In this document: positions 13,737 through 63,891 of the stretch, in pieces
Numbering within the stretch: position 1 is the stretch's first letter
Layout of the letters: the number at the start of each line of letters is the position of its first letter
Assembly: GCA_965648905.1 (NCBI GenBank)
Contig: CBFGIT010000010.1
Location: 1 to 64,000, forward strand
Direction of reading: 5' to 3'
Length of the DNA: 64,000 nucleotides
Source of the DNA: a candidate division WOR-3 bacterium
GTDB taxonomy: Bacteria; Hydrothermota; Tepidihabitantia; Tepidihabitantales; Tepidihabitantaceae
The notes under the pieces: model-generated
The model's database searches: none
Told to the model about the DNA's origin: nothing
The model's input: only the letters and a program-made list of their open reading frames with translations
Translations under genes and position numbers: made by a program

Positions 13737-13739
13737 CAG

Positions 13740-20147: not shown

Positions 20148-20151
20148 GTCC

Positions 20152-21231
20152 GTGAGTCAATTGCCTGAGCCGCTCTATACAACTCAGTGGGGCAAGGCCT
20201 ACGTCGGTGACTCCCTGGCTCTACTTCCGGAACTCCCCGCGGAATCGGTGGACCTCATCGTAACCTCGCCGCCTTTCGCCCTGCAGAGAAAGAAGGAGTA
20301 CGGCAACGAAGACCAGGACGCCTACGTTGACTGGCTGCTTCAGTTCGCGGAACCTATCAAGCGCGTCCTGAAAACCACCGGCAGCTTCGTAATTGACTTG
20401 GGCGGCGCCTATCTCGCTGGACGCCCGACCCGGTCACTGCACAACTACCGTCTGCTGCTCCGATTCTGTGATGGGCATGACTTTCGCCTCGCCGAGGAGT
20501 TCTTCTGGCACAACCCGGCCAAGCTCCCGTCGCCCATCGAGTGGGTCAACAAACGCAAGCTGCGGGCCAAGGACTCAGTCGATACAATCTGGTGGCTGTC
20601 CAAGACCGACTACCCGAAGGCTGATGTCCGGAAAGTCCTTGCGCCCTATTCAGAGCGCATGAAACAACTGCTGGCCGACAGCGAGCGATTCTACACGCCC
20701 AAGAAACGTCCATCTGGGCATGACATCAGCAGCCGGTTTGCGGACAGCAACGGCGGTGCCATCCCGTCGAATCTTCTGCAGATTCCGAACACGGAAAGCA
20801 ACTCTCCCTACCTGCGCCGTTGCGCTTCCGTGGGCGCAAAGGGTCACCCTGCCCGTTTTCCTGAGAAGCTGCCAGCCTTCTTCATACAGTTCTTGACCGA
20901 CCCCGGCGACTTGGTCCTCGACATCTTCGCCGGCTCCAACACCACCGGCGCAGCGGCTGAGCACGCAGGCAGAAACTGGCTCGCCTTCGAGAAAGACCGG
21001 ACGTACCTGGCAGCGTCTGCGTTCCGATTCCTCGACACCGACGATCCTGACGAGCTTGCCGACCTCTGGCGAACGACGACATCACTGGATGAGACGGTTG
21101 AGATACGTCCGCGGCAAGCCGAGCTGCTGATGCGAGACGCAGCCAGTGACGGCGCTGCAACGCACGGCGAACTGAAGATGGCGCGCCGGAAGTCGCGCCC
21201 TTCTCATGATAGGCGAAGGAGCGTGCGCTGA
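20152..21231 (+). CDS. DNA methyltransferase, beta-class N4-cytosine/N6-adenine family (N6_N4_Mtase-like), orphan or partner of unknown restriction enzyme
   Basis: Motif IV DLIVTSPPF precedes motif I VLDIFAGSNTTGAAAE (circularly permuted beta-class order); RBS gaggag upstream of GTG 20152 (ORF track extends to TTG 20134); last about 60 aa Arg-rich and non-conserved-looking. Confidence 0.85.
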   Translation: MSQLPEPLYTTQWGKAYVGDSLALLPELPAESVDLIVTSPPFALQRKKEYGNEDQDAYVDWLLQFAEPIKRVLKTTGSFVIDLGGAYLAGRPTRSLHNYRLLLRFCDGHDFRLAEEFFWHNPAKLPSPIEWVNKRKLRAKDSVDTIWWLSKTDYPKADVRKVLAPYSERMKQLLADSERFYTPKKRPSGHDISSRFADSNGGAIPSNLLQIPNTESNSPYLRRCASVGAKGHPARFPEKLPAFFIQFLTDPGDLVLDIFAGSNTTGAAAEHAGRNWLAFEKDRTYLAASAFRFLDTDDPDELADLWRTTTSLDETVEIRPRQAELLMRDAASDGAATHGELKMARRKSRPSHDRRRSVR

Positions 21232-21465
21232 AGATCGACCTGCCCGAGACGCTCTCGAACCTGACCGGCAAGCGCATCCGCCGCATCCTGCCGGGATCGG
21301 TCGAGTTCGAAGACGGCACGGTCATCGACCTGACCAAACTAGGTTTCGAGTTCTTCAAGCTCATCAAGCCGATGGTGTGGTGGTGAAGGTGGTCGGCGCT
21401 GATCAGCCATCTAGCCCGCAGCACGGGCCATCGGTATCCCTGAAGGTTGACTGACAAAGGAGGAA

Positions 21466-22014
21466 GTGGCAATGCAGAAAGGCGAAAATGGCTTCGCGTG
21501 TTTCCTACTGAGCCTGCTGACGCTGGGAATAATCCGATTCTTCAGCGTCCCCCAAGGATACGTTAGATTCGTTACGGCCTTCGGCAAGTTTCGCAGGAAA
21601 TGCGAACCCGGCCTAGGCCACTGTGTTTCATTCTTGGGTCTATACCAGAAGCCCACACGGCTCGTGCCCATCATGGAGCAGGTACGCGACTATCCCAAGG
21701 AAAGCGTATTCACTCGCGATGGCGTTAAGTGCAGGATTGACTCGGTTGTGTTCTTCACCATCAAAGACTCCTTCAAGGCTGTCTTCGAGGTTGAGGACCA
21801 TGAGGCGGCGATCTTCAGCCTTGTACGCGCCACCCTGCGCAATGAGTGTGGGAACCTCGCGGCCCGTGAACTTCTGTCGGGTAGGGAGAGACTGGCAGAT
21901 AGACTTCGGAGTCAGCTCGACAAAGACACTGAGCCGTGGGGCATTTCCGTCAGGCTGGTTGAGATTACCGACATAGCCATGACGGTCAACGACAAAGAGG
22001 AGGTGCTAACATGA
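21466..22014 (+). CDS. SPFH/band-7 (stomatin/prohibitin-like) membrane protein
   Basis: N-terminal TM helix then SPFH domain (VPQGYVRFVTAFGKFRRKCEPGLGHCVSFLG...TRDGVKCRIDSVVFFTIKD...WGISVRLVEITDI). Confidence 0.75.
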   Translation: MAMQKGENGFACFLLSLLTLGIIRFFSVPQGYVRFVTAFGKFRRKCEPGLGHCVSFLGLYQKPTRLVPIMEQVRDYPKESVFTRDGVKCRIDSVVFFTIKDSFKAVFEVEDHEAAIFSLVRATLRNECGNLAARELLSGRERLADRLRSQLDKDTEPWGISVRLVEITDIAMTVNDKEEVLT

Positions 22015-22451
22015 TGTCCGTGAAAGCTCTTGATGAGGATGTCCGTCCCGTAGTAGACGAACGCGAGCTGCTGCAGTTCGAGGCCGAGAACGTACGGACC
22101 TTCTATTCCTTGACGGCCCCGGCCCGCAAGGAGTACACGATCCAGATGGCCGAGGCGGAGGCGGAGAGAATACGTATCGTGCGGAAAGCGCAAGCCGAGG
22201 GCATACTCGCCATCCGCAAGGCGGAGGCAGAAGGCTACAAGCTAATGGGCGAGGCCCTCGCGCAGTGCGGACAGGCCGAACAAGTGCTTAAGCTCGCAGG
22301 GCTCGTGGCACTGCAGGACGTCGCGCGGTCGCTGGCAAACGGCACAGCGACGAAGATACTGCTTCCTCACGGTATGGGTGACATTTTCTCGCTTGTTGCA
22401 GGTTGGAAGGAAATCCTGGCGTCGGCCTCACCCACTGCGAGTCCGGACTGA
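22011..22451 (+). CDS. Coiled-coil protein resembling the C-terminal AERE/AEGE helical region of band-7 proteins; ATGA-coupled to upstream SPFH gene
   Basis: QMAEAEAERIRIVRKAQAEGILAIRKAEAEGYKLMGEA resembles post-SPFH helical region; 4-nt ATGA overlap suggests translational coupling rather than random frameshift. Confidence 0.5.
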   Translation: MMSVKALDEDVRPVVDERELLQFEAENVRTFYSLTAPARKEYTIQMAEAEAERIRIVRKAQAEGILAIRKAEAEGYKLMGEALAQCGQAEQVLKLAGLVALQDVARSLANGTATKILLPHGMGDIFSLVAGWKEILASASPTASPD

Positions 22452-22524
22452 TGAGAACAGCGCCTCAACCCTGCGATAGCCCAGACCGGGGAGTTGTGCG
22501 TTTCACAGAGAGGAGGTGATCCCG

Positions 22525-22929
22525 ATGGCCACCAAGAAGTGTCCGACATGCCCATTCAGCTACGACACTGACAAGAAGGACTCCTACCAAGAGTGCTCTG
22601 AGTGCGGGGCTCGTTTCTGCAACAGCTGCGCCGGCAGACACGGCTGGAAGTGCCCCGTATGCAAGAGCCCATTTGGTCGACTCGAGCACCCGCCAGGCTG
22701 CTCTCGAAGGACGAACCGACTGCGAGGGTTACCCGTCTCCTCCGCTGAGGGGATAGAAGCTCATGGCCCTAACGCTCCTCCAAGACATGGTCGAGGGCAG
22801 GCCCTATCAGTCCCTTCCGGCCAACTGGAGTTCGTTCGACCTGAAGAGCTTCTCGCGGCAGAAGCAGCTTTGGGGCTATCAGCAGCAGGCCGTCGCGTCG
22901 GCAGTGGTCGCGTTGTGGAAGTACTATGA
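22525..22929 (+). CDS. Small 8-cysteine zinc-ribbon protein (functional part about first 55 aa; long 3' tail probably not real)
   Basis: AGGAGG RBS 7 nt upstream of ATG 22525; CPTC-x11-CSEC-x5-CNSC-x7-CPVC; tail is low-complexity and overlaps next ORF. Confidence 0.45.
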   Translation: MATKKCPTCPFSYDTDKKDSYQECSECGARFCNSCAGRHGWKCPVCKSPFGRLEHPPGCSRRTNRLRGLPVSSAEGIEAHGPNAPPRHGRGQALSVPSGQLEFVRPEELLAAEAALGLSAAGRRVGSGRVVEVL

Positions 22930-23452
22930 GGACTTCGGCGACTACCAGCGCGGCGAGAGCTTGGACGTGAACCTGGAGCGGAAGCGGCGGTTCTGTCTGT
23001 GGTATCAGGATAACGAACTGCCGCAGGGGATAAACCTGACGCTGTCGCGGCTCGGGCGGCACGTGCGGATGCTCGACGACTACTACGACACGGCGGCGGG
23101 CCTGCCTGCCGCGACGCGGAATGCGGCGCAGGCAGGCGAGATTCCGTTTGAGAGCATCGTCAATCGGATGTGCTTCTGGATGGCAACCGGTTCCGGCAAG
23201 ACGTTGGTGCTGGTCAAACTCGTCGAGGTTCTGCGCGGGTTGATTCTGGCCGGTGAGATTCCGCCGAATGACATCCTGGTGCTGACGCATCGGGAAGACC
23301 TGATTGAGCAGCTCAAGCGCCACGTTCAGGAGTTCAACTCCTCGCGCAATGACCTGTACATCCGACTGCGGGAACTGAAGGAATACGCCGAGGCGAAGTG
23401 GGAGAATCCAACCGCTTCGCGGCCAGGGCAAAGGTCAAGGCGAGAGGAATGA
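22763..23452 (+). pseudogene. Truncated SF2 helicase / type III res-like ATPase N-terminal fragment (motif I and Ia only)
   Basis: Q-motif-like GYQQQAV, Walker A MATGSGKTLVLV, motif Ia ILVLTHREDLIEQ; ORF ends before DEAH box; downstream about 700 bp lacks ORFs. Confidence 0.55.
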
Positions 23453-49631: not shown

Positions 49632-50384
49632 CTAGTACTCGCCGCGGTTGAAGAAATAGACCGCGGCTCCAGTTGCGACCGCGCCAAACACCACCAGGAA
49701 CCCAAGGTCGAACCACACCGGATAGAACCCGAATCCAAGTACCAGCCGTCTGACCAGGTCCACGCCGTAGGTTAGTGGGTTCAGGCGCACGAGCACATCG
49801 AGCCAGGAAGGCAGGCCGCGCATCGGGAAAAGTGCGCCCGAAAGGAACCACATCGGCATGATGACGAAGTTCATGATTGTACCGAATCCCTGGAACGAAG
49901 TCATGCGGGCGGCGATGACGATGCCGATGCCGGTGAGGGAGAATGACATCAGGGCCATCACCAGCATCAGCGGCACGATGTTCGGAAGCGGCAGGCGGAC
50001 GTGGACGAGCGGGGCGAGGAGCATGATGATGCTGCCTTGGATGAGCGAAAGCGTGGTGCCGGCAAGGCCCTTGCCGATTACGATTGACGTGCGCGGAACC
50101 GGCGCAACCAGAATCTCCTTGAGAAAGCCGAACTCTCGGTCCCAGATGATACTGATGGCCGACTGAATCGACGTGAAGATTGTGGTCATTGCGATGATGC
50201 CCGGGAAGATGAATTGGGTATAGTTGACGTTCTCAACCCGGCCGTACGAGCCACGCAGGCCCATGCCGAGGATGAAGAGCCAGAGGGCGGGTCGGGCGAG
50301 CGAGCCGTAGAGTTGGCTCCTTTCTCGGAAGTAGCGAATGAAGTCCCGTAACCAGATCATGTAGATGCAGGCAAAGTCAATCAT
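49632..50384 (-). CDS. ABC-2 type transporter permease
   Basis: Six-TM ABC-2 permease; start trimmed to MIDFACIY.. because longer ORF-track N-terminus overlaps ATPase gene. Confidence 0.7.
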   Translation of the reverse strand: MIDFACIYMIWLRDFIRYFRERSQLYGSLARPALWLFILGMGLRGSYGRVENVNYTQFIFPGIIAMTTIFTSIQSAISIIWDREFGFLKEILVAPVPRTSIVIGKGLAGTTLSLIQGSIIMLLAPLVHVRLPLPNIVPLMLVMALMSFSLTGIGIVIAARMTSFQGFGTIMNFVIMPMWFLSGALFPMRGLPSWLDVLVRLNPLTYGVDLVRRLVLGFGFYPVWFDLGFLVVFGAVATGAAVYFFNRGEY

Positions 50385-50463
50385 ACGCGGACGACCCCGG
50401 AAGTGAACTTCGAGGATGCAGGGAACGGAACGAATGAAGGCCCTGGATTCCGACTTCGCTCGG

Positions 50464-51474
50464 TCATCGCCACGCCCTTCCCATACGACGCAAGCGAGTC
50501 TTGAGTTTCTCACGACCCGAAGCTTCGTCGTCGCGGATTTCCCGGCCGGTGAGTCTGAGGAAGACGTCGTCCAGAGTCGGCGGGTGAACCGACACCGCAA
50601 ACACCGGCACCGACAGTTCGTGTATGAGCTTCGGCACGAACTCGGCTCCGTTCTTGACCTCAAAGCGCACGCCTTCGTTGTCCACCATTACCGGTGTGGG
50701 ATGTGCTCTGTCGACAAGTCCTGTGTTGAGCAGTTGGCGTACTTCGGCCGCGGCCTTCTCATTATCGCTGGTCGACAGGCGAATGCGGTCACCCTGCACC
50801 TGCTCTTTGAGGCGCGCCGGCGTATCCAAGGCGACTATCCGACCGTGGTCAATGATGGCAATCCGGTCGCAGTATTCGGCTTCATCCATGTAGTGGGTCG
50901 TCAGGAAGAGGGTCATGTTCCGCTCACGGCGGAGCGTCATCAGTCGCTCCCAGATACGGTTGCGCGTCTGCGGGTCAAGGCCCAGTGTCGGTTCGTCGAG
51001 GAAGAACACCCGCGGTTCATGCAGCAGTCCACGGCCGATTTCCAACCGGCGTTTCATCCCGCCCGAGTAGTTCCGCACTAGGTCATCAGCCCGGTCTTCA
51101 AGTTTCATCCAATTGAGTGCGTCAGCGATTCGCTGTCTAAGTTCGGATTTCGGCACCCGGTAGACCATGGCGTGGAACCGCAGGTTTTCACGTGCGGTCA
51201 GTCGGTCGTCGAGCGACGGGTCCTGGAAGATGATACCGATCGACTTCCGCACCTGGTTGTGCTCGCGGACAACGTCGTGTCCGGCTACCTCTGCCTGACC
51301 CGCACTCGGACGGGTGAGGGTACAGAGCATGCGCACGGTTGTGGTCTTGCCTGCGCCGTTTGGTCCGAGAAACCCGAATACCTCGCCGGGCTGTACAGCG
51401 AACGATATGTGGTCAACAGCCAGCAAGCCCTTGAATTCCTTGGTCAGACTGTCGACTCGGATGATCGGTGGCAT
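50464..51474 (-). CDS. ABC transporter ATP-binding protein (ABC-2/DrrA-like exporter ATPase)
   Basis: Walker A GPNGAGKTT, signature YSGGMKRRL, Walker B VFFLDEPT. Confidence 0.85.
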   Translation of the reverse strand: MPPIIRVDSLTKEFKGLLAVDHISFAVQPGEVFGFLGPNGAGKTTTVRMLCTLTRPSAGQAEVAGHDVVREHNQVRKSIGIIFQDPSLDDRLTARENLRFHAMVYRVPKSELRQRIADALNWMKLEDRADDLVRNYSGGMKRRLEIGRGLLHEPRVFFLDEPTLGLDPQTRNRIWERLMTLRRERNMTLFLTTHYMDEAEYCDRIAIIDHGRIVALDTPARLKEQVQGDRIRLSTSDNEKAAAEVRQLLNTGLVDRAHPTPVMVDNEGVRFEVKNGAEFVPKLIHELSVPVFAVSVHPPTLDDVFLRLTGREIRDDEASGREKLKTRLRRMGRAWR

Positions 51475-51480
51475 CGTCCG

Positions 51481-52362
51481 TTATCCGGCCGGTTCAACCT
51501 TCTTCTGCACGTCTACTGCCGCCAGGTAGATGCCGGCACAGATGACCGCACCGCCCACGGCTTCGTATGGTGTCGGTGCCTGTCTGAGCAGAGCCCAGGC
51601 GAGCAGCGTTGTTCCGACCGGCTCGCCGAGCACAGCCATGGCCACGGTCGGCGCCGATACGTACCTGAGCGCCCAGTTGAAGCTCGTGTGTCCGAGCAAC
51701 TGAGGACCGAGGCCGAGCAGGATGATGAAGAGCCACGCTTTCGGGTCGGATACCCGGACGCCTCTTGTGAGCATCGCCACGACCAGCAGTGCCGCCGCGA
51801 TACTGTAGACAACGTAGATGTATGAGACGAGCGACAGATTCGGCCGTACGCGTCTGCCAGCCATGAGATAGCCGCCGGCACAGGCCGCACCGGCCAAAGC
51901 CAACAGGTTGCCGACAGTAGTGCCGGGTGACTTGAGCGCGGGCCCGGCAATGACCGCAGCGCCGAGCAGACCGAGCACCACTGCAAGCACGATGCGCCAC
52001 GATATCCTCTCCTCGAGCGCCAGCGGTGACAGGGCCGCGACAAAGATCGGGTTCATGGCCACGAGTACAACCGACGAGGCGACCGAGGTTCGATTCAGAG
52101 ACTCTATCCAAAATGCGAAGTGGGCGGCGAGCAGTAGCCCGGCGAGAGCCATCGGCCCCAGCGGTACCCTGCGCAGCTCGGACCGGCGCTCGGTCGGCCG
52201 GGTCCAGAAGAACGGTGAGAGTACCAGCGCGGCAACGACCATACGTCCGGCGGCAATCACGATGCTCGGCGCGGGCGTGACTTTGATGATGATGGACGCG
52301 AATGACAAGACCACGATACCGGCGCCCAGACCGGCGAGTACACGCATGCGAGACACAGCCAA
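51481..52362 (-). CDS. EamA/DMT superfamily transporter
   Basis: Ten predicted TM helices in two EamA-like repeats. Confidence 0.75.
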   Translation of the reverse strand: MAVSRMRVLAGLGAGIVVLSFASIIIKVTPAPSIVIAAGRMVVAALVLSPFFWTRPTERRSELRRVPLGPMALAGLLLAAHFAFWIESLNRTSVASSVVLVAMNPIFVAALSPLALEERISWRIVLAVVLGLLGAAVIAGPALKSPGTTVGNLLALAGAACAGGYLMAGRRVRPNLSLVSYIYVVYSIAAALLVVAMLTRGVRVSDPKAWLFIILLGLGPQLLGHTSFNWALRYVSAPTVAMAVLGEPVGTTLLAWALLRQAPTPYEAVGGAVICAGIYLAAVDVQKKVEPAG

Positions 52363-52443
52363 GGAGTAACTTTGTCCGGCATCCGTGCAAAGTCAAGGAC
52401 AACCTGTGGCTTGACCGTCGAGGCTGCTGCCCTATACTCGGAC

Positions 52444-53403
52444 ATGATTCGTTGCTCCCTGGTTGTTCTGCTCGTTGCGCCGGCATGGGCGTGGTTTGGC
52501 TCGTCAGCAACCGGCTACACGTTCATGAAGATTGGGGTCGGTGCCCGGCCGGTCGCGATGGGCGGCGCATACACCGCGGTGGCAGACGATGCCAACGCCA
52601 TGTTCTGGAATGCGGCCGGGCTCGCCTTCGGACAGGACCTCTCAGCCAGTGCCACCATCATGGGGCTGTTCCAGTCGGTCACGTACACCTCGGCCGGACT
52701 TGCGGCATCGCCTGTGAGGAACGTTGGCATCGGCGCGGCAGGCGCATACCTGAATGCGACCGATACCCGCCGCGACGAGCACGGTGAAGAGACTGGCACG
52801 TTCGGCGTGTCGGATTTCGTCGTCGGTCCGGCCGCGGCCTGGATGCCGGTCAGAAACCTGGGCATGGGCCTGGGGGCACGCTATGTCGCCAGCCGGATAG
52901 ACAGCTTCGCGGCCTACTCAGCGTCACTTGACGCCGGAGTCATCTACCGGCCGGTCGGCTTTCTGACATTCGGAGCAAGCCTGCTTCATGTCGGCCCGCC
53001 CCGTAAGTTCATCGCCGACTGGGAGCACCAGCCGACGAACCTGCGTACCGGCGTCGCGCTGAAGTTCCCGTTCTCCCGAAACCACATCATTGTGGCCTCT
53101 GACCTGTCCGTGTTGCCGGACTACGGGCCGACCATCTCGGTAGGCGGCGAGCTACACATCACTATGCAGACCAAGGGCCGCGAGGCGACCGGGGAACATG
53201 GGTTCGCCATCAGAGCCGGCTATCAATCCGGCGCACACGTTGGCACCTGGTCGGGGTTCTCACTTGGCATGGGCTATGAGTACCCGATTGCGCCCGGTCT
53301 CTCACTCGGCGTGGACCTCGTCTATCTCTCCTACGGTCTGCTTGGTTCATCCGAACGCGCTTCGGTCGGTCTCAAGTACGCCCGGCCCAAACGTCGGCGT
53401 TAG
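52444..53403 (+). CDS. FadL-like outer-membrane beta-barrel protein (PorV/PorQ-like)
   Basis: Signal peptide MIRCSLVVLLVAPAWA; N-terminal hatch motif GARPVAMGGAYTAVADDANAMFWNAAGLA resembling FadL [26 protein letters not shown]. Confidence 0.55.
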   Translation: MIRCSLVVLLVAPAWAWFGSSATGYTFMKIGVGARPVAMGGAYTAVADDANAMFWNAAGLAFGQDLSASATIMGLFQSVTYTSAGLAASPVRNVGIGAAGAYLNATDTRRDEHGEETGTFGVSDFVVGPAAAWMPVRNLGMGLGARYVASRIDSFAAYSASLDAGVIYRPVGFLTFGASLLHVGPPRKFIADWEHQPTNLRTGVALKFPFSRNHIIVASDLSVLPDYGPTISVGGELHITMQTKGREATGEHGFAIRAGYQSGAHVGTWSGFSLGMGYEYPIAPGLSLGVDLVYLSYGLLGSSERASVGLKYARPKRRR

Positions 53404-53645
53404 GCTGACGCAAACGGCAGAAGCCCAGGCAAAGGTGTTTTCTCTTGTCCGTCTCTCGCCTGACGTCGCTGGCTGGGAGACAGCCATGCATGCGTGAGTG
53501 CCACTTCCGCGGTCGCGCCTGCCCGGTGAATCTGTCATCGACGTTTCAAGTGACCGGCGACTGAGCATGGGAGGCCGACCCGGCCAGCGCTCTTGCTCAG
53601 TACTCGGTTCGGGTGCGGACGGTCACACCGCGCCGAGCGGGTCTG

Positions 53646-54659
53646 CTACTTCTTCTTGTACCCGTCAGGTACTTCGAATTCCGTCACGGATACGTCGGTG
53701 ACAACAACGGACTTGACCTCGTGGTAGGACGAGAAGAGGACGTCCGACTTGTCCTTGGGCGGCTCTTTGACAATTGCCTTGGCAATCTTGCCGGCGAGCA
53801 TGCCGCCGAGCCCGCCTGAAGGAGCCGGCTCCTCTTCATCTTCGTGGGCCTTGGTTCGAGCGGCTGAGTCCGCTTTCACCCGCCAGGTGACTTCGGTGAC
53901 AATCGGGTAACCTTCGACCTTGGCGAGCTCTCGGGCCGCCTTCTCAAAGCTCCGCGCCGCATCCTGTGAGCTAACACCGTAGGTCATGGTCAGAAGACCA
54001 AGACCCATCTGCTGCATCTGTTCAGTTGTAACCTCAAGGCCCATCTTCCTGGCAAGCTTCCGGCTGAACTCGGCCTCGACCGCCTGTGCTTTCTTGAGAT
54101 TCTCGGTCGAGGGCGTGTTCCACATATCCGTGGTCATTACTTGGCCGACTCTCTCTCTGCTGACCGTGTCTTCAAGTTCCAGTTCCCAGGTCATCAGGTA
54201 CTCGGTGCAAGGGAACCCATTGATATCTTTCGTCTTGCCGGTCTTCTCGACCTTGAACTCCGACTTGGTGACACGGTGGCGCGAGGCAGGCACGCTGCCT
54301 TCGGTTGTCGCCTCGGCCTTCGTGTTCGAGAGCTCTTCCTCGGTCGGGGGCTTGATAGGTCGTTCGGTGTAGCTCTTGCTTCCGTGGTCGACATCCCAGA
54401 TGAGGTCTTTGTCCAGCCGGGTTATCTCAGTCTGTTTTCGCGGCTTGCCGGCCAGCGCGCCGACTACGCCGCCGACCATCTTGACGGTCTGGGCAGCGGC
54501 TTTCATGTCGCCATGGAAGGCGTTCTGGGACGTAATTTCGACGTTGCCGATGCCGGCCAAGAGCGACGTGCGGGTGAACGTCTCGGTCTTGAGGTCAGCC
54601 CAGGCTGTGCCGGCGAGAATCACGAGCAGGGCTGCTGCGGTCGTAATGGTCTTCTTCAA
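53646..54659 (-). CDS. Secreted hypothetical protein (DUF4412-like periplasmic protein)
   Basis: Signal peptide MKKTITTAAALLVILAGTAWA; charged, K/E-rich; no catalytic motifs. Confidence 0.5.
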   Translation of the reverse strand: MKKTITTAAALLVILAGTAWADLKTETFTRTSLLAGIGNVEITSQNAFHGDMKAAAQTVKMVGGVVGALAGKPRKQTEITRLDKDLIWDVDHGSKSYTERPIKPPTEEELSNTKAEATTEGSVPASRHRVTKSEFKVEKTGKTKDINGFPCTEYLMTWELELEDTVSRERVGQVMTTDMWNTPSTENLKKAQAVEAEFSRKLARKMGLEVTTEQMQQMGLGLLTMTYGVSSQDAARSFEKAARELAKVEGYPIVTEVTWRVKADSAARTKAHEDEEEPAPSGGLGGMLAGKIAKAIVKEPPKDKSDVLFSSYHEVKSVVVTDVSVTEFEVPDGYKKK

Positions 54660-54789
54660 AGTGGTTCTCCTTGGCAGGGATTATAGACGCTTGGCCGGCT
54701 CGGTCAACCTCACAGGTGCGGCTGCGCCGGCCGCTGTCCGTCTGACACGAGTCGTCACGCCCGGCCCTGGCTGCGACCGACCCGACGCA

Positions 54790-55050
54790 TCCGCTTGACG
54801 TAAAGCCGCACCGCGGCCCCGAACTTGCGCCAGCTCGCCCGCTGGAACAGCTTGCCGAGCAGCGCTTGCACTCCGGCCCATCATCTGAACCGGTGGCGGA
54901 TGATGCGCAGTCTGATGGCCGAGAGTTCATCGACGCCAAGCCCGGGCTGCAGGAGCAGAGGAATCGATGGGTCCTGACTCAGGTCGACAAGGCGCGGGCC
55001 AGAGTACTCCTCGCTCCACGAGAAGCCGGCAGGCAGCAGGCCGCGTTCAG
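54790..55050. repeat. Direct repeat copy A (degenerate duplicate of 3' end of rSAM gene at 59068-59335)
   Basis: About 260 bp, roughly 90% identical to 59068-59335 by eye (ccgaacttgcgccagctcgcccgctggaacagcttgccgagcagcg...ggcagcaggccg). Confidence 0.8.
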
Positions 55051-56810
55051 CGCTGGATGACAAGCTTCTGTGCGGCCTGGTGGCCTTGCGCCTCCAGCCG
55101 CACGAAGTAGACACCGTCAGGGAGTGCCGCGCCCAGCGGGACGGAGTACCGACCCGGCGTGTGCCTACCTGACGCCAGTTCGGCCACAACCCGTCCCGCC
55201 GCGTCGAACAGGCATAGCCTGACCTCTGCCGACTTCGGCACATCGTAGCAGGCCATCGCTCTGCCAGGAGCCGGGCTTGGACTGACGGACAAGGCCCAGT
55301 CGGCCGGAGCCGCGACCGGAGCCTCGCAAGCCCCCACTGGCGCAATCTGGAAAGCCTGATGTGACTCGTCAAACTGCCAGCCAGGCCCGTAGGCGATGGC
55401 CAGAATCTTGGCCCAGGCGAGCGTCGTTTCCGGCACGACCCAGACGTAGCTTGATTCGCTCGGTGCAAGTCCGGTCGCAATCGTATCCAGCCGCCAGAAC
55501 CACTCACCAGTCGGCACGATTGTATCGGTCAACAGGAACAACGACACCGAATCGCACCTCGGGGGCTGAAACAGCCGCCAGCGAATCTCGCACGTGTCGC
55601 CCGAGCGAAGGAAGTGGTTCGTGTCCGGGCTGAGCACCCGGATGCACTCGACCTCCAGCACGAAGCTCTGCCCGTGCCCGCCGACCAATATCTCCTTGTA
55701 TCCGTTCCGGTTGAAGTCGGCCGCATTGCACATGCTGAAGATCCCCTGGCCAAATCCGCCATCGCAGACTCTCTCATACTGGTGCGGCCCGGTGGCCTTC
55801 AAGATGATGATCCGGTATCCACAGCCCCAGATGACCTCGTCCAGGCTGTCTCCGTCCACGTCGGCACACAGACTCTGGCCGCAGTAAGGCTCGTAGACGC
55901 TTGACGCTGTATCGACTGTGTCGCAGAAGTACTGATGCTCGAAAGGAGCCTCGACCTGGCAGAGGGTTTGTGAGTACCTCAGGCCACCCAGATTTCCGCT
56001 AACCACGTCGAAGTACTCAGGTCTTCCGTTGTGGTCCACGTCGCGCCCGGAAAACCTGTCGTTGTCTCCCCAGGAGCCGGTATACACTGAGCAGACCCGT
56101 TCGTACCGATTGTCGCCAATGCACTCAACTACATGGTCCCCGCGGAAATTCCCGTTGCCGAACGCATAGTCGGTTCGGCCATTCTGGTCGAAGTCGCCTA
56201 TCACCGGCAGCGACCATACATAAGAGCGCGGGGCTGTACAGACCAGGCTTTCGCGGTCGTTGCCCACGTTCTCGAAGACCGCAGTGGATTCCACTCCCCA
56301 AGGGGTTACGATGTCCCAGGCCGAGTCTCCATCAAGATTCGAGCAGAGCGCCGGACAGGCGGCGGCGCTGTTTGGGGTCGGAATCCACCAAACCAGGGAG
56401 TCGGGGTGGGAGCGAGCGTCCCGACTCTCGAATATGCAGAGCGCCATCCTGTACCCGCTTCCACTGTCATATCCTGCCTCGCCTACGACTTCGAGCAGGC
56501 CGTCCCGGTCTACATCACAGACATCGTAGGGCCTCAAGTTCCCGAGCAGAATGCTCTCGCCAGAAGGGTAATGCCCCGTATCCGAGATGACGAGGTCGTA
56601 CCGGTTGACCGGCCTATACTCGGCCATCTGGAAGAGCCGACCGGGGTTGTGGATGACCTCTCCCAGACTATCGTGGTCTGTGTCGGTGGTCAGCAGCCTA
56701 TCAAGGGGATTGCTGGCGGCCAGGGGCAGGTCCGCAATCCGAACTAGAGCGAGTTCTGTCGCGGAGGCAACGGTGATGCCCGACAGGACGATGCCTAGGA
56801 GGGTTTTCAT
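55047..56810 (-). CDS. FG-GAP/VCBS repeat protein with T9SS C-terminal sorting domain
   Basis: Signal peptide; repeated DxDxDG/FG-GAP-like units (DVDGDS, DFDQNGRTDYAFGN, DVDHNGRPEY); CTD ...GVYFVRLEAQGHQAAQKLVIQR. Confidence 0.65.
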   Translation of the reverse strand: MKTLLGIVLSGITVASATELALVRIADLPLAASNPLDRLLTTDTDHDSLGEVIHNPGRLFQMAEYRPVNRYDLVISDTGHYPSGESILLGNLRPYDVCDVDRDGLLEVVGEAGYDSGSGYRMALCIFESRDARSHPDSLVWWIPTPNSAAACPALCSNLDGDSAWDIVTPWGVESTAVFENVGNDRESLVCTAPRSYVWSLPVIGDFDQNGRTDYAFGNGNFRGDHVVECIGDNRYERVCSVYTGSWGDNDRFSGRDVDHNGRPEYFDVVSGNLGGLRYSQTLCQVEAPFEHQYFCDTVDTASSVYEPYCGQSLCADVDGDSLDEVIWGCGYRIIILKATGPHQYERVCDGGFGQGIFSMCNAADFNRNGYKEILVGGHGQSFVLEVECIRVLSPDTNHFLRSGDTCEIRWRLFQPPRCDSVSLFLLTDTIVPTGEWFWRLDTIATGLAPSESSYVWVVPETTLAWAKILAIAYGPGWQFDESHQAFQIAPVGACEAPVAAPADWALSVSPSPAPGRAMACYDVPKSAEVRLCLFDAAGRVVAELASGRHTPGRYSVPLGAALPDGVYFVRLEAQGHQAAQKLVIQR

Positions 56811-56858
56811 GTCGGCGCGGGGCGGGGAGGATCCCTCCCCGCCCCAGACCTTGACTAC

Positions 56859-58802
56859 CTACCGGGTCAGTACGACCTTGCGGGTCTGGCTGAAGCCCGA
56901 GGATTCGACACGGAGCAGGTAAGCGCCGGGCCTCACGGCACGCCCATTGGCATCCAGCCCGTTCCAGGTTGCGCTGTACGTACCCCGCCCACGGAATCCC
57001 GTGGCCACGCGCCGGACCACCCGACCAAGCGCGTCGTAGACACCGACGTCCACATAGCCCGGCTGCGAAACCGCGTAGTCGATGCGCGTTGCGGCACCGA
57101 TGATGGCTGGCCCGAGTTCGACAAGCTCCACTGGTTGGACACATCTGTCGGCCAGCACGGCGTCTCGGCTGCCGTCGTCCGATTTCCGCTTGTACGGATA
57201 GCACTGATATAGCTTCAGCTCGGCCAGCACGGCGTAGTCGCCCACAAGCCTCGTGATATCAAGGTCCACCCTGGAGTCCCCAACGTACTTCTCGCGCGGG
57301 ATGTACACGAGAACCGTCTCAAGAACGCCTGGCTCGAACCGAACCCTCGCGACCTGCACGCTGTCAAGAGAGAAACTCTGCTCCCACGTGTCCTGGCTAG
57401 CCTGGTACAGGACCGCCTCTACCCGGTAGTCGTAGTTCGGGTTCAGATACCAGAGACGGTACTTCAGTCCCTCGCGGCCATAGTCAACTGAATGGCCACG
57501 CCAGCGCCTGAAACCATCTCGGGCCAGGCAGTACCGCGAACGTACAGAGTCGCCAGCTTGGACGTCGTAGTACACGAACCCCCTGAAACCGTCGTGCGGT
57601 GGCGGCGTGAACACGTCGCGCCGGAACAGCACCTCATAGGGCGTCGGCGAGCCCGGTGCGGCTTCGCTGGTCCAGGCCGTGTGGAGCACGAGGTACTCTT
57701 CTGGGAGCGTGGACACTTCAGCAGCGATGTTCGGATACAGGGATTGAGGTTCGTCCACCTGGAGTGGAAACGTCGGCGGAAGCATGAACAGGTTCAACCA
57801 GATATCCTCGTCCACGGTGACATCCGCGCGCTGGTGCCACGCATGCGCCCACGGAGTGGACTGCTGCGGGCAATTGGCGTACTCCGTGGCCGCGTCGAGG
57901 ACAGGCTGAATGGGGAACCACACGCTAGGTGGGTCTTCCACGTACCGCTGTGCTCGCCATATCATGCCATCGTCACCTTGCTCCTTGCTTCGCCAGACGA
58001 CATAGACTGACTCTGCGAAGCTCTCGATCGAGGGATTGAACGCAGGTTTGTACAGGTCCGGCCGGGCTTGGGATACTTCCCATTGCCCGTCCCACCAGCC
58101 CGGCGCGATTCTCATCCTGTACCAGAGCTGGCGGTCGAACTGCGGGGGCAGCTGCTCACACCAAGACACATGGACGTACTCGCCTGGACCCCTCTCGCCA
58201 CCTGTGACAGCTACGCTGGGTTCCCAGAGATGCGCGTCGGCCGGGGCGGCCCAGGCGGCATCCGGCGGCTCCACTGGACCGGACGAGAGGGTGACCGTGT
58301 GCAAGCGTATGATGTGGTAAGACCATTCGGGGTCAAACCAGCCGTACGCGACACATACTGCTGGTCCGGTGCTTGCGACGGGAGGCTTGTGGCACACCGC
58401 CATCGACGGCGGGGTAAACACGTTGTCTTTGCACACCTCGAATGCCTGCCATATGCCAGAAGCCAGCCGCGCGGCCGTGAAGAGCTTCTGTGGGGCCCAT
58501 TTCCAGTAGCTGACCCAAGGCTGGCCTCCCTCACATACAATGCAGGGCTCTCTGCCTTCTCCGACGACCTCAACCGGCGACCAAGTGCTTCCCTGGTCGG
58601 TCGAGTACGAGTAGTGTATGGGTGAGTCGTCAGTTTCGCCGTAGGCGAAGACCAGGTGAAGCCATCCGGTCACAGGGTCCAGGGCCAGGTGGCGGCCCTG
58701 GTTGTACGCCGTAGCGTACTGGGTCTCGGTCGGGAACGACTGTCCAGCTACCGCAGACAGAAGCCCGACCACTGCGAACATGAAACAGATGCTTCTGACC
58801 AT
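56859..58802 (-). CDS. BNR/sialidase-like repeat protein with T9SS C-terminal sorting domain
   Basis: Start set to MVRSICFMFAVVGLLSAVAG (AAGGAGG RBS); BNR motif SYSTDQGSTW; CTD ..GAYLLRVESSGFSQTRKVVLTR. Confidence 0.6.
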   Translation of the reverse strand: MVRSICFMFAVVGLLSAVAGQSFPTETQYATAYNQGRHLALDPVTGWLHLVFAYGETDDSPIHYSYSTDQGSTWSPVEVVGEGREPCIVCEGGQPWVSYWKWAPQKLFTAARLASGIWQAFEVCKDNVFTPPSMAVCHKPPVASTGPAVCVAYGWFDPEWSYHIIRLHTVTLSSGPVEPPDAAWAAPADAHLWEPSVAVTGGERGPGEYVHVSWCEQLPPQFDRQLWYRMRIAPGWWDGQWEVSQARPDLYKPAFNPSIESFAESVYVVWRSKEQGDDGMIWRAQRYVEDPPSVWFPIQPVLDAATEYANCPQQSTPWAHAWHQRADVTVDEDIWLNLFMLPPTFPLQVDEPQSLYPNIAAEVSTLPEEYLVLHTAWTSEAAPGSPTPYEVLFRRDVFTPPPHDGFRGFVYYDVQAGDSVRSRYCLARDGFRRWRGHSVDYGREGLKYRLWYLNPNYDYRVEAVLYQASQDTWEQSFSLDSVQVARVRFEPGVLETVLVYIPREKYVGDSRVDLDITRLVGDYAVLAELKLYQCYPYKRKSDDGSRDAVLADRCVQPVELVELGPAIIGAATRIDYAVSQPGYVDVGVYDALGRVVRRVATGFRGRGTYSATWNGLDANGRAVRPGAYLLRVESSGFSQTRKVVLTR

Positions 58803-59042
58803 GAGAGAACCTCCTTGATGGTCACGAGAACATCTCTTTGGGAGTACGGCGAGTTCGTGCAACGGAGCTTCCCAAGGAAGCGCGCATACCGGCGGTCGGG
58901 AGCGGTCCCGTGCCAGCTTGCCCACCGTCATCCCGCCAAGAGTCTAGGCCAAGTCAGTCCGAAGTCAATGCCGCGCAGATTCGATCTCTGTGCAAGCCGG
59001 CCCCAAATGGCGCGGCACGGGCACTTGGTGCGCAAGACCGCG

Positions 59043-60482
59043 CTACCGCGCTGAGCCGGGCGCGAACAGCCGCCTCAAGTACAGCCTGACCGCGGCCCCG
59101 AACTTGCGCCAGCTCGCCCGCTGGAACAGCTTGCCGAGCAGCGTCTTGACTCCGGCCCAGCCTCCGAATCGCTGGCGGATGATGCGCAGCCTGATGGCCG
59201 AGAGTTCATCGACGCCAAGCTCGGGCTGCAGGAGCAGAGGAATCGATGGGTCCTGGCTCAGGTCGACAAGGCGCGGGTCAGAGTACTCCTCGCTCCACGA
59301 GAAGCCGGCAGGCAGCAGGCCGTGTTCTCGGGCATAGGTCTCAAGGTGCGTTCCCGGGTAGATGCGGACGCCCGCGCCACAGGCAAGGGTGGAGATGCGC
59401 TTGCGGTGTTTCTCGACGAACCGGAACGTCTGCTCGACATCGGCCATGGTCTCTGCAATGTGGCCCATGGAGAAAAAGACCTTGGTCTTGAGTCCCAGGT
59501 CGGCGCACCAGCCGAGCAGTTCTTCGGCTCGCTCTAGACGGAACCCCTTACACATCGCGTCGAGCACGCGCTGACTGGCTGACTCGATGCCGAAGTCGAC
59601 GTAGTAGCAGCCTGCCCGCTGCATCCTCTCAAGCAGGGGCAGGTCAACCGTGCCGACCCTGATTTCGCACTCCCAGGGGAAACTGAGGCCCCGGCGTTCG
59701 ATTTCGGCACAGATGCCTTCGATGTGGGGCCGGCGCAGGGTGATGGTCGAGTCAAAGAACCTGATGCCCTCGTAGCCGTACTTATCCATGAGCAGTTGGA
59801 CCTGGTCGAGCACATACCCGGCCGAGTGGCAGGTAACGTCATGTCCGTACATCGCGCTGGCCGAGCAGAAGGTGCACTGCATGGTGCAGCCGCGCGAGGA
59901 GATGAACGCGATGCCGCGCTTGTTCAGGAATTCCATCCTGAGTGCGTAGCGGTTCATCGCCAGCAGGTCCCAGGCCGGGCCGGGCAGCGAGTCGAGGTGC
60001 TGGATGCGCACCGGCGGCCCGGTTTCGACGATGCCGCGGTTCTGCCGGAACAGCAGACCCGGGACGCGGGTGAGCTCAGCCGGTCCTGTCCTCAACGTAC
60101 GCAGAATGACGGTCATGCTCTCTTCGCCTTCTCCCCGCACCACGATGTCGATGTCGGGCACGTGAGCGAGCGTGTCGCGGCCGGTGAACGAGGCATGGAC
60201 GCCTCCGAAGACCGTCCTGATTTCGGAGCTGAAACACTTGACCCGGCGGGCGATGTCGAAGCTCTGGTAGCGCGTGTGGGTTGTGCCGGAGATCCCGACC
60301 ACGCGCGGCTGGAGTTCGGCAAGGTGTTTCTCCAGGGGCTGTTGTTCGACTTCGTAGTCGAGGAGTTTCACCGAGAATCCCCCTGCCCGGGCGTGGGCCG
60401 CAATGTAGGCCAGGCCGAGCGGCGGTATCAGCTCGAACGGAGTTCCCCGTTCCTTGGGGTTTACCAGCAACAGGTCAATCAT
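59043..60482 (-). CDS. B12-binding domain radical SAM protein
   Basis: N-terminal cobalamin-binding region then CTMQCTFCSA (CxxxCxxC) radical SAM motif. Confidence 0.8.
   Translation of the reverse strand: MIDLLLVNPKERGTPFELIPPLGLAYIAAHARAGGFSVKLLDYEVEQQPLEKHLAELQPRVVGISGTTHTRYQSFDIARRVKCFSSEIRTVFGGVHASFTGRDTLAHVPDIDIVVRGEGEESMTVILRTLRTGPAELTRVPGLLFRQNRGIVETGPPVRIQHLDSLPGPAWDLLAMNRYALRMEFLNKRGIAFISSRGCTMQCTFCSASAMYGHDVTCHSAGYVLDQVQLLMDKYGYEGIRFFDSTITLRRPHIEGICAEIERRGLSFPWECEIRVGTVDLPLLERMQRAGCYYVDFGIESASQRVLDAMCKGFRLERAEELLGWCADLGLKTKVFFSMGHIAETMADVEQTFRFVEKHRKRISTLACGAGVRIYPGTHLETYAREHGLLPAGFSWSEEYSDPRLVDLSQDPSIPLLLQPELGVDELSAIRLRIIRQRFGGWAGVKTLLGKLFQRASWRKFGAAVRLYLRRLFAPGSAR
59068..59335. 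repeat. Direct repeat copy B (intact 3' end of rSAM gene)
   Basis: Matches 54790-55050. Confidence 0.8.
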
Positions 60483-60569
60483 GCGAAGTCTGGCGAATGA
60501 TAGGAGGGCACGGGCCGGCTGTCAAAGGAACCGGCCGGGTCCAAGACCCGGCGGGCTTGATTCGGCACG

Positions 60570-61067
60570 TTGCTCTGCTATAGTCCGACCGTGGATAGCA
60601 CTCACATCCTCGAAGCCGCGGGTCGGTTTCACGGCCATATCGGGCCCTGGCTTGCTCTTGGCGTTCGGGCCGGTCTGCTGGCCATGGAACGGCTCGGAGC
60701 CTCCCACTTTGGCCTTGGGGCCGACGTGCGCTGCCCGGAGCGCACTCCCTACACGTGTTTCCTTGACGGCATTCAATTCAGCACCGGCTGTACCATGGGC
60801 AAGGGTAACATCCGCCATCTTGTTGCTGAAGGCTGCTCGGTCGTTTTCTCGACCAGCGGAAAAGGTCTGCCGGGTCGCACGTTGGAACTGGGGGTTGCGC
60901 CGGACCTGTGGGCCGAGTTACACGAAGACCGTCAACTGAACGATCGGCAGGTGACTTTGCTCGGCTATGACGTGTTCGAGAGGCCGACTGAGTCTCTGTT
61001 CCGGGAATACCCACCCGATACGAATTCCGAAACCAGCAGCACCGGACCGGAGTCTAACGAGCCGTAA
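60570..61067 (+). CDS. FmdE/FwdE-domain protein (formylmethanofuran dehydrogenase subunit E-like)
   Basis: RFHGHIGPWLALGVRAG motif typical of FmdE domain; divergent from rSAM gene. Confidence 0.6.
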   Translation: MLCYSPTVDSTHILEAAGRFHGHIGPWLALGVRAGLLAMERLGASHFGLGADVRCPERTPYTCFLDGIQFSTGCTMGKGNIRHLVAEGCSVVFSTSGKGLPGRTLELGVAPDLWAELHEDRQLNDRQVTLLGYDVFERPTESLFREYPPDTNSETSSTGPESNEP

Positions 61068-61692: not shown

Positions 61693-63891
61693 ATGATGAA
61701 GTTCTGCTTACTGGCAGTCTGGGTCGGTGTTGCCCAGGCCGCCTGGATTTCAGTTGGTCCGGATGGCGGGTACGTCCAGGCGTTTGGCGTTGACCCGCAG
61801 GCACACGAGCATCTCTACGCGGCCTGCTATGACTACCCGGAGAACTCAAGGCTGTTTCGTTCGACCGATGCCGGCGCATCCTGGGCGCTGCTGGGTACGA
61901 TTCCTTATCCGTCGGTTACAGCTCTGGCGGTTGACCCGTTTGATGCGCGTTTCATCTACGTTGCCGCACGCGGGTCAGGACTGTACCGCTCGGACGACGG
62001 CGGTGCGAGCTGGCGCATGTATAGTCTGCCCGGTCAAGCCAATGCATTCGACTGGAGCACGGGCGTGGCCGGTCGGATCGTTGCTGGCGGCTACTACCTG
62101 TCAGGCGGCAGCTACCGGGCGGCACTGTTCGTTTCGACCGACCGTGGGGCAACGTGGTCGGTGTCAATGCCGCGGCCGGATACGGTGTTCTACGCCTATG
62201 CCTGTGCCGCAGACCCATCCCGGCCTGGGACCGTGTATCTGGGCAGCAGCTCAGGTTACCTGCATCTTACCACTAATGGCGGCAGCACGTGGACTCTTGT
62301 TAACTCGGGCCTGCCGTCGACCGCGACGACCATGAGTCTGGCGGTCAACTCGGACGGCAGCGCAGTGCTGGCCGGGACCAGCGCCGGCATATACCGCAGC
62401 ACAAACCAGGGTGCAAGCTGGACACTGGGTACGGGCTCGCCCGGCTCGGTGACGAGCGTCACTTTCTCGCCGGCAGACGCGCGGTACGCCTGGACCCTGG
62501 GCCGGACTGATTCGATGCGGGTCATGGTTTCGACCGACGCGGGCAGTCGCTGGACCGTACCGGTGCCGGGCTTTGTGACGCTCAAGACCGCAACCCTCGT
62601 GCCCGACCCGGCGACCCCAACCTGCGCTTACCTCGGTACCCAGACCGGGGTCTTTCGTTCGACCGACATGGGCGCAATCTGGAACCCGGCGCATACCGGT
62701 TTGCGTATCGCCAAGATTTCGACGATCGCGGCCGGGCCCTGGAACAGCGAACGGGCCTACCTTGAAGTATCTGAAAACGGTGTCTTCAAGACTCTGAACC
62801 GGGGCTCGAACTGGACCCGGTGCAACGACTTCCTTTCCTGCGGTAACATCTGTGGAATCGGGGTACTGACCGAATCCGGCGGCGACGTCTTGTACGCGCT
62901 TGAGGGCTCGGGCTGAGGCAACGCCGAGCTCTTCAAGAGCACGGACGGCGGTGCCGTCTGGATAGAAATCGAAAGCTACTACGGTGAGGGCGGGGCCTGC
63001 ATCGGTCATCCGGATTCGCTCAGGACCCTGCTTACCGGGGGGCAGGGCGCGGCAGCAGACAGCTACGGGTTCGTCGTTTCAACTTCCTTCAATGCCGGAC
63101 AGAGCTGGCTGAGGAGGCGCATGGCTTATCCGTGTCGCGGCTACTGCAATGCGCTGGCCGTACGTACCGGGACAGACCGGGCCGTGTACGCAGGCGGGTG
63201 GGTTAACTTCCCGACTGGAACGTCTGGTGCGGTCCTGAAGTCTACCGACTTTGGCGCGACGTGGGAATCGTTGCCCGGTCCTCTGCCTGATACGGTGTTC
63301 GGCATTGTGGCCGACGACCAGGACGGGCCTTTGGTCTTCTGCGCGACGACGAGCGGTGTCTATCGCACGACCAACGAAGGGCAGAGCTGGACCAGAGTGC
63401 TGGGTCAGCGCGGAATGCGGGCATTGGCTCGGGCTGGAACGCGCTGTGCCGCGGCCGGAGATTCCGGGGTCTGGGTGACCACGGACCAGGGCGCAAGCTG
63501 GGTCAAACTCGATTCCGGCCTTGGTTCGACCAGGGTGAACTGCCTTGAGTTCATGGCCGGAGCTGATGACTGGCTCTGGCTATTGGCCGGCACTCACGGC
63601 AGGGCAGTGTTCTACTGGGACTTCGGGCCGACCGCGGCCGCGGGGCCTTGCGTTCCGGTCGGGTGCAGGATACCAGCGTCGGTGCTGCGCGCCCGGCTGG
63701 TTCTGGATCTGGAGCAGGGGTCAAGGGTTCGGTTACTTGATGCTGCGGGCCGGACCGTGCTCAGCAGGCGTCTGCACCGGGGTCGGGCAGAGCTGGATGT
63801 TTCGTATCTGCCTGCCGGTCTCTACTTTGTGCAGCGGACCGACGTAGAGTCCGGCAAGTCGGTTACGACCAAGGTCGTGGTCGAGCGCTAG
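61693..63891 (+). pseudogene. BNR (xxDxGxTW) repeat T9SS cargo gene interrupted by in-frame TGA at 62914-62916 (ORFs 61693..62916 and 63121..63891 share one frame)
   Basis: Signal peptide; at least 8 BNR repeats (STDAGASW, DDGGASW, STDRGATW, TNGGSTW, STNQGASW, STDAGSRW, STDMGAIW); the supposedly intergenic 62917-63120 continues in frame with another BNR unit (KSTDGGAVW); C-terminal T9SS CTD. Confidence 0.6.

Follow-up and report, generated by a model that had tools for sequence, protein, structure and literature searches.

A damaged copy of a radical SAM gene end behind a type IX secretion cargo operon in a candidate division WOR-3 bacterium, very probably a rearrangement scar

The end of a gene that appears twice within a few kilobases raises two questions: how the second copy arose, and whether it serves any function. 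Such a case is found in a 64,000-nucleotide (nt) stretch of DNA from a candidate division WOR-3 bacterium (assembly GCA_965648905.1, contig CBFGIT010000010.1, positions 1 to 64,000), hereafter called the window. A gene for a B12-binding radical S-adenosylmethionine (rSAM) enzyme is followed there, on the same strand, by two genes for cargo proteins of the type IX secretion system (T9SS), the second of which is an FG-GAP gene, and beyond this gene lies a second version of the rSAM 3' end. A sequence-only reading of the window had described the pair as a direct repeat of about 260 bp, had taken it for a segmental duplication, an insertion into the end of the rSAM gene or a recombination scar, and had suggested that the enclosed genes form a cassette that moves or varies between strains. 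In this work we compared the window with itself and with about 20 related loci, obtained from scans of a genome collection and of metagenomes with the rSAM C-terminus and designated by L numbers. Sampling is thin, and the rSAM protein of the closest relative genome is 88% identical to that of the window. The copy next to the FG-GAP gene (copy A) is very probably a decaying, non-functional rearrangement scar and not a functional element, and the other (copy B) forms the native end of the functional rSAM gene.

A repeat search over the window placed copy A at 54788-55048 and copy B at 59067-59327. Both are 261 nt long and align without gaps at 92% identity, with a spacing of 4279 nt. In blastn of the window against itself the same pair gave 262 columns with 17 mismatches and 2 gaps (E 1.7e-105), so that self-alignment confirmed the duplicated rSAM end. 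No other significant repeat was found in the 64 kb, where the one further self-match was weak (112 nt, 70.5%, E 3e-7). The coordinates first proposed, 54790-55050 and 59068-59335, were right to a few bases, except that copy B ends at 59327 and not at 59335. Exact tracts of 55, 44, 34 and 30 nt are shared by the two copies. The segment between them measures 4018 nt (55049-59066) and encloses both cargo genes, copy A lying just past the FG-GAP stop as had been described. Only the 261-nt piece is repeated: the window holds no second copy of a cargo gene, and neither self-blast nor tblastn with the rSAM protein revealed further rSAM copies in it.

Which copy is the original can be read from the gene itself. 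The rSAM gene is intact, its closest homologs carry the name candidate division WOR-3, and its orthologs in L006 and L001 share 88% and 81% aa (amino acid) identity with it, respectively. Tails in this family are short, basic and hypervariable. The last codons of the gene (Table 1) are contiguous with copy B, and their alignment with the corresponding part of the L001 ortholog is significant (score 34, attained in 0 of 300 shuffles), which identifies copy B as the gene end in use.

Copy A, in turn, is frame-damaged, as the sequence-only reading had noticed. It carries an in-frame TGA at 54883-54881 (RFR*W, against RFGGW in copy B) and, near 54869-54865, two 1-nt indels (+1 and -1) separated by about 5 nt. 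By these lesions it is recognised as a pseudogene fragment of rSAM in the course of decay. When the 21 gapless differences between the copies were polarised with two outgroups only (L006 and L001), 9 appeared derived in copy A and 3 in copy B. The dN/dS ratio between the copies (0.42) also exceeds the ratios between orthologs (0.17-0.30). One may ask whether copy A is kept by selection nonetheless, as a silent donor cassette, as an RNA in the 3' untranslated region (UTR) of the cargo operon, or as the substrate of an excision switch. Its first 155 nt are unexpectedly well kept (5 differences), and RecA could probably recombine the copies through their identical tracts of 55 and 44 nt. With its nonsense codon and indels, however, copy A is a poor donor, and the rSAM protein is a cytoplasmic enzyme without an obvious reason for C-terminal variation. 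Neither copy shows an excess of RNA structure (folding z +0.64 and +0.72), and Rfam gave no match above noise. No other genome keeps such a copy, and the conserved promoter of the downstream gene lies outside the repeat. A selected function of copy A thus has a very slim chance of being correct. The idea that the repeat carries the downstream promoter was likewise rejected, as neither copy A nor copy B contains one of the conserved promoters.

The left edge of copy A is sharp. Its first base is the G of the FG-GAP TGA stop codon (55049-55047), and the GA of this codon forms the two opening bases of copy A. No sequence is shared upstream of GA/GAAC between the FG-GAP stop and rSAM codon 386, as in junctions of the illegitimate type. 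A tblastn extension that seemed to carry homology upstream into the FG-GAP gene (55129-55153) was dismissed as an X-drop extension, because the DNA there encodes, in another frame, the conserved T9SS C-terminal domain of the FG-GAP protein. The C-terminus of this protein coincides with the ends of six orthologs, all of which stop in TAG, and this places the junction in or directly 3' of the native stop. As copy A supplies the GA, the illegitimate junction may have rebuilt the stop codon. As to stop codon usage, the FG-GAP gene ends in TGA, and the six orthologs and two other cargo genes of the window end in TAG.

Three independent synteny blocks meet at this locus. On the minus strand the order is rSAM (60482-59043), a 690-aa open reading frame (ORF), the FG-GAP gene, copy A and a DUF4412-like gene (54659-53646), with a PorV/PorQ-family gene next on the plus strand. 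The upstream block is represented by FmdE and Hsp20 genes beside rSAM in L001 and by FmdE in L006, where the short contig breaks off inside FmdE. The cargo genes are adjacent in L008 and L009 (59% and 64% aa identity) and in L007, in unrelated neighbourhoods, and the operon has different neighbours in L029 as well. The downstream block has the identical order in L026, contig 46 of the assembly from which L001 comes too; in that genome the downstream block and rSAM lie on different contigs. Copy A is located exactly between the cargo operon and the downstream block. What follows rSAM elsewhere is different again, a convergent peptidase-C1 T9SS cargo gene in L006 and a convergent large helicase, Mfd-like by translation, in L001. 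In four distant WOR-3 loci (L002, L015, L019 and L020) rSAM is followed by co-directional homologs of polyprenyl synthetase, Dxs and SprA, the short contig of L019 having polyprenyl synthetase only and L002 having one small gene in between. The window homologs of these three genes lie at 6292-14594 on the minus strand, 44 kb from rSAM and on its strand, with the rpoBC, EF-Tu and transfer RNA (tRNA) cluster in between. This arrangement suggests that synteny was broken long ago at the 3' flank of rSAM.

Divergence between the copies is uneven along the repeat (positions counted from 0). Blocks 0-154 and 184-238 together hold 5 differences in 210 nt (about 2%). Block 155-183 holds 9 in 29, with copy A as the outlier, with most of the changes that could be polarised derived in A, and with the nonsense codon and the indels inside, so that 9 of the 14 differences of the core (0-238) fall in this one cluster. 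High identity stops at position 238. The last 22 nt (239-260) are still homologous and hold 7 differences, a divergence like that of ortholog pairs, which show 6 to 9 in these 22 nt. The contrast of 5/210 with 7/22 gave p 1.5e-5 in a Fisher test, and the step at position 239, from 0/55 to 7/22, gave p 7e-5. This jump argues for two gene-end alleles rather than for a single decayed copy, and points to copies A and B being different alleles of the last 15-20 codons of the gene. The sequence 5' of the jump would be near-identical either through close relatedness or through later homogenisation by gene conversion.

Block 239-260 of copy A is identical to copy B, and likewise to L001, at 15 of 22 positions (p 2e-4 against chance), and the encoded peptide RLYVKR is identical in L001. 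The frame then continues through ten Arg-rich codons (RRVGRSQGRA) before a TGA at 54757-54755 closes it, the sequence of this A-type tail being ...VKRMRRVGRSQGRA. At least 4 Arg in 10 residues are expected by chance with a probability of about 0.035, and a stop in that range with one of about 0.2. The tail is Arg-rich and has the usual style and length of rSAM family tails. We read it as an alternative tail allele of a displaced gene end, the part beyond position 260 being assigned by its frame and composition.

A copying event within the genome has to be weighed against these data. Either a tandem duplication from rSAM codon 386 to the FG-GAP stop followed by loss of most of the second copy, or a template switch resembling microhomology-mediated break-induced replication (MMBIR) that placed about 260 nt of the nearby rSAM at a new junction of cargo operon and downstream block, would leave a sharp, illegitimate left edge with at most a few bases of possible microhomology, as seen here. 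Copy A also loses similarity inside the ORF, about 24 nt before the expected stop, as an arbitrary internal fragment would, no compositional difference marks the region, and A and B are mutual closest relatives. However, a once-identical copy should decay uniformly, whereas the copies step abruptly to a sequence that is still rSAM-like and matches L001 in protein. Two or three separate events would be required, together with an additional replacement of one tail, and the adjacencies of rSAM with cargo and of cargo with the downstream block, which are absent in relatives, would need explanations of their own. We regard such an origin as unlikely, and the plain segmental duplication proposed earlier fits poorly with the jump.

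The history we favour is a displacement of the 3' end of rSAM by one homologous crossover and one illegitimate join, an account to which we would give an even chance. The ancestor would have carried rSAM with the A-type tail, directly followed by the DUF4412-like/PorV/EamA/ABC block. Incoming DNA from a close relative or from another haplotype would have brought an rSAM 3' end with the B-type tail, followed by the cargo operon. A homologous crossover within the rSAM gene, and an illegitimate join between the last base or bases of the FG-GAP stop codon and the resident rSAM at its codon 386, would then have left an intact rSAM with copy B and its native tail, the cargo operon, and the displaced resident end (copy A) still attached to its old neighbours. 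Copy A would later have decayed by a nonsense codon and two indels. We infer the order of these events, the outside origin of the incoming piece and the combination of one homologous with one illegitimate step from the layout of the locus, that of an intact gene followed downstream by a 3' fragment in the same orientation.

This displacement is preferred because it requires a single event, because it explains the allele-like jump at position 239, and because recombination with relatives is seen at the rSAM gene. A tract of 540 nt (60121-60660) is about 95% identical to L006, with flanks at 62-86%. It extends from the 5' end of the FmdE gene, which is transcribed divergently, across the intergenic region and 360 nt into rSAM, and looks like a short import by homologous recombination between WOR-3 lineages. 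The tract was rejected as the displacement crossover itself, since it has a boundary on either side and since the identity of copy A to L006 reaches only 81%. Of the two origins named earlier besides duplication, an insertion into the end of rSAM and a recombination scar, both agree with the arrangement described here, in which copy A is a decaying orphan, copy B is native, and the cargo pair and the block after copy A are independent.

Several observations weigh against a displacement. Neither rSAM-cargo nor rSAM-DUF4412-like adjacency was found in the contexts of L006 or of the FG-GAP and DUF4412-like homologs, so that both parental arrangements are hypothetical, and the downstream neighbours of rSAM vary among the 20 or so loci. 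Past position 260, the last 33 nt of copy A do not match any rSAM tail significantly at the nucleotide level. A and B are closest to each other when the repeat is taken as a whole (92%, compared with 81-83% to L006), as an intragenomic duplication predicts too. The dN/dS ratio, which is 0.42 between A and B and 0.17-0.30 between orthologs, was tried and rejected as a means of separating duplication from import, having no power with only about 19 changes counted. Natural transformation is not known in WOR-3. Homology-facilitated illegitimate recombination, moreover, is rare in experimental systems (PMC5361080).

An insert flanked by direct repeats from the 3' end of a protein gene, with the gene intact on one side and a pseudogene fragment on the far side, is also what a site-specific integrative element targeting the rSAM 3' end and carrying a replacement gene end would leave, the copies then being attL and attR as for e14 or phage 21 in icd. 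All that the 4-kb insert holds, however, is the two T9SS cargo genes with their promoter and leader; a gene for an integrase, an excisionase or a transposase, or one of phage or plasmid type, was not found in it. Pfam and NCBIfam searches detected no recombinase, transposase or integrase in the cargo genes, in the flanking genes or in about 30 further large ORFs of the window. Searches by blastn against 50,697 phage and 72,556 plasmid records gave no match. No tRNA lies within 23 kb (the nearest is at about 24 kb), and Rfam matches to a possible RNA target were at noise level only. A foreign composition of the insert was rejected, GC content being flat at 0.58-0.66. None of the related loci is a second occupied site, and in other WOR-3 genomes the cargo operon is an ordinary chromosomal operon. 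An integrative element is in our view extremely unlikely.

As the source is one metagenome-derived contig (107,913 bp, one record), an artefact has to be considered as well, namely a chimera of two strain haplotypes, rSAM-cargo and rSAM-DUF4412-like, joined by the assembler through their common rSAM. The exact tracts of up to 55 nt and the tails, which look like two alleles, would suit this explanation. Graph assemblers join at shared k-mers, and the sequence in which the FG-GAP stop meets rSAM codon 386 is unique, without a counterpart beside copy B; some real molecule must therefore carry the cargo operon followed by a truncated rSAM. The lesions of copy A would also be unexpected in a second live allele. 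We hold a chimeric contig to be most improbable.

The same surveys bear on the proposed mobile or strain-varying cassette. No second remnant of the rSAM end and no cargo pair beside rSAM was seen in any of the related loci, each of which has a single intact end, and with no recombinase or mobile gene in the scanned ORFs and no second example a presently mobile cassette is unsupported, as is a recurrent hot spot. A bolder version would make the rSAM end a recurrent homologous landing pad in this WOR-3 lineage for the swapping of T9SS cargo operons, with a 4.3-kb unit that is excisable, re-insertable and polymorphic in the population. If so, RecA would pop out a circle with one hybrid repeat, which would re-integrate elsewhere by a single crossover, giving an integrase-free cassette system for the repertoire of secreted proteins. 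This scenario is very doubtful.

The layout resembles several known systems. C-terminal displacement with orphan gene ends has been described in rhs, contact-dependent inhibition (CDI) and Vibrio cholerae type VI secretion system (T6SS) loci and was proposed to proceed via homology-facilitated illegitimate recombination (PMC5361080). As in those loci, an intact gene is followed a few kilobases downstream by an orphan 3' fragment in the same orientation, which would still adjoin its former neighbours; the new 3' end would come with new downstream genes through one homologous and one illegitimate junction, and no integrase is involved. Here, however, the displaced gene encodes a cytoplasmic B12/radical SAM enzyme and not a polymorphic toxin. 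The two gene ends encode near-identical protein that differs in the last 15 or so residues, without functional diversification. The payload is an independent T9SS cargo operon, and there is one orphan, no array, and no recurrence in other genomes.

A similar layout is that of the icd/e14/icdC region of Escherichia coli K-12, where the 3' end of a housekeeping-enzyme gene is duplicated, with the intact gene on one side, a C-terminal pseudogene on the other and scattered substitutions, and recombination between the copies would excise the insert and yield a chimeric gene (PMC13626634, citing Hill et al. 1989). The e14 prophage measures 15 kb, encodes a site-specific integrase of its own and is excised upon SOS induction (PMC13626634). 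The insert of the window, in contrast, spans 4 kb without recombinase or phage genes, and its fragment is additionally inactivated by a nonsense codon. A general pattern in population genomics is that flexible genomic regions can be replaced by homologous recombination in flanking core genes. The present locus shares with that pattern a synteny breakpoint at the rSAM 3' end, where three related genomes have the same upstream genes and three different downstream neighbours, as well as a divergence jump within the end of a core gene and a tract at its 5' end that looks imported. The ordinary case has two homologous crossovers and leaves no duplicated fragment, whereas here one side is illegitimate and an orphan remains.

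At present the repeat probably has no role, save a possible RecA-dependent deletion or amplification of the 4.3-kb unit. The shared tracts should be long enough for recombination through RecA, by which the 4279-nt unit could be lost or multiplied. If the crossover fell 5' of the copy A TGA, the rSAM protein would be shortened by about 39 residues; after one in the 55-nt tract, the enzyme would be intact and end in the A-type tail. The significance is modest, as the locus very probably bears a rearrangement scar of an ordinary kind rather than a new system. It would nevertheless illustrate how the T9SS cargo repertoire of a WOR-3 genome can be rearranged by recombination anchored in a conserved housekeeping-type gene without destroying that gene. 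For annotation, 54755-55048 should be marked as a pseudogene fragment and the shadow ORF 54881-55507 ignored; the repeat could also cause assembly or binning errors. The features of the locus are collected in Table 1.

Table 1. Features of the rSAM-cargo locus (coordinates are those of the window unless another locus is named)
Feature	Position	Strand	Basis or remark
B12-binding radical SAM gene, 479 aa, intact	59043..60482	-	Pfam B12-binding 1.7e-23, Radical_SAM 1.3e-18
Repeat copy B, rSAM codons 386-472 (gene of 479 codons)	59067..59327	-	
Native rSAM tail, last 24 nt (eight codons) + TAG	59066-59043	-	Contiguous with copy B
Cargo operon promoter-like site, TTGACT-16-TAGACT	58941..58968	-	Aligns with TTGAC..N..CATAAT promoters of homologous operons (L008, L007, L029)
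Cargo operon 5' leader, conserved, probably structured, then AAGGAGG and ATG 58802	58839..58935	-	Covariance model
Leader/promoter, window	58839-58968	-	
Leader/promoter, L008	877-1041		
Leader/promoter, L009	5170-5334		
Leader/promoter, L007	6438-6598		
Leader/promoter, L029	538-700		
T9SS cargo gene 1, 690-aa ORF, FlgD_ig/T9SS C-terminal domain, one Asp-box	56859..58931	-	Pfam, NCBIfam
T9SS cargo gene 2, FG-GAP/VCBS, T9SS type A sorting domain, 587 aa	55047..56810	-	Pfam, NCBIfam
Copy A high-identity core, repeat positions 0-238, orphan rSAM fragment	54810..55048	-	
Copy A divergent tail, positions 239-260 and ten further in-frame codons to TGA	54755..54809	-	
DUF4412-like gene promoter, TTGACC-16-TATAAT, sigma70-like	54680..54707	-	11/12 consensus positions; starts downstream synteny block
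Downstream block: DUF4412-like, PorV/PorQ-family, EamA, ABC ATPase, ABC-2 permease	49632..54659		Pfam, NCBIfam
DUF4412-like gene	54659-53646	-	
PorV/PorQ-family gene	52372-53403	+	
EamA, ABC ATPase and ABC-2 permease genes of downstream block		-	

The segment between the copies proved to be of interest in its own right. By its sequence features the cargo pair forms a self-contained operon, complete with promoter and leader. Upstream of the operon, four distinct WOR-3 genomes (window, L007, L008/L009 and L029) have the promoter and a leader of about 100-125 nt, which stands directly before the FG-GAP homolog in L029. A covariance model (R1) built from three seed sequences scored 82.8 bits on the window and 82.3 bits (E 4e-15) on L029, which was outside the seed. 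RNAalifold predicted three stems in the leader, and the window lacks a 24-nt tip of one stem and keeps its base. Covariation among the four sequences amounts to 3 double changes, which were attained in 42 of 500 shuffles and are suggestive only. No Rfam family corresponds to the leader, which we propose as a candidate unannotated cis-regulatory RNA. This conserved module of leader RNA and promoter is the more useful by-product of the analysis and a better lead than the repeat.

The first cargo gene had been called a BNR gene. Pfam sees in the 690-aa protein only the FlgD_ig/T9SS C-terminal domain, although a pattern match locates one Asp-box, STDQGSTW, at residue 110. Its true start is probably M44, the ATG at 58802, with AAGGAGG upstream and the signal-peptide-like MVRSICFMFAVVGLLSAVAG downstream. 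Homologs are 649 aa long and align from residue 39, and the 130 nt upstream correspond to the conserved leader.

Some minor observations concern the neighbouring genes. The promoter of the DUF4412-like gene is conserved nearly base for base in three genomes (window, L026 and L025), reading TTGACCGnGCC...TCTATAATCC. Within 54660-54707 the window has a 12-nt insertion with AAGGAG before the TTG start of this gene, where relatives have ATG. As to the rSAM enzyme itself, the polyprenyl synthetase and Dxs neighbours in distant loci suggest that it acts on an isoprenoid lipid; NCBIfam matches of the protein to HpnJ, HpnR and lipid rSAMs were every one below cut-off.

Elsewhere in the window, the plus-strand ORFs 61693-62916 and 63121-63891 are in the same frame, with a single TGA at 62914-62916 between them (…EGSG*GNAELFKSTDGGAVW…). 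BNR/Asp-box sequence runs through this TGA, and its continuity argues for one BNR/sortilin-type T9SS cargo gene of about 730 aa (61693-63891) with one in-frame TGA, which could reflect a pseudogene, a sequencing error or recoding. Finally, a DNA methylase gene (N6_N4_Mtase, 20134-21231) lies near a 229-aa ORF (22763-23452) with a partial ResIII/SWI2_SNF2 match only, and the region 20134-23452 may be a degraded restriction-modification system.

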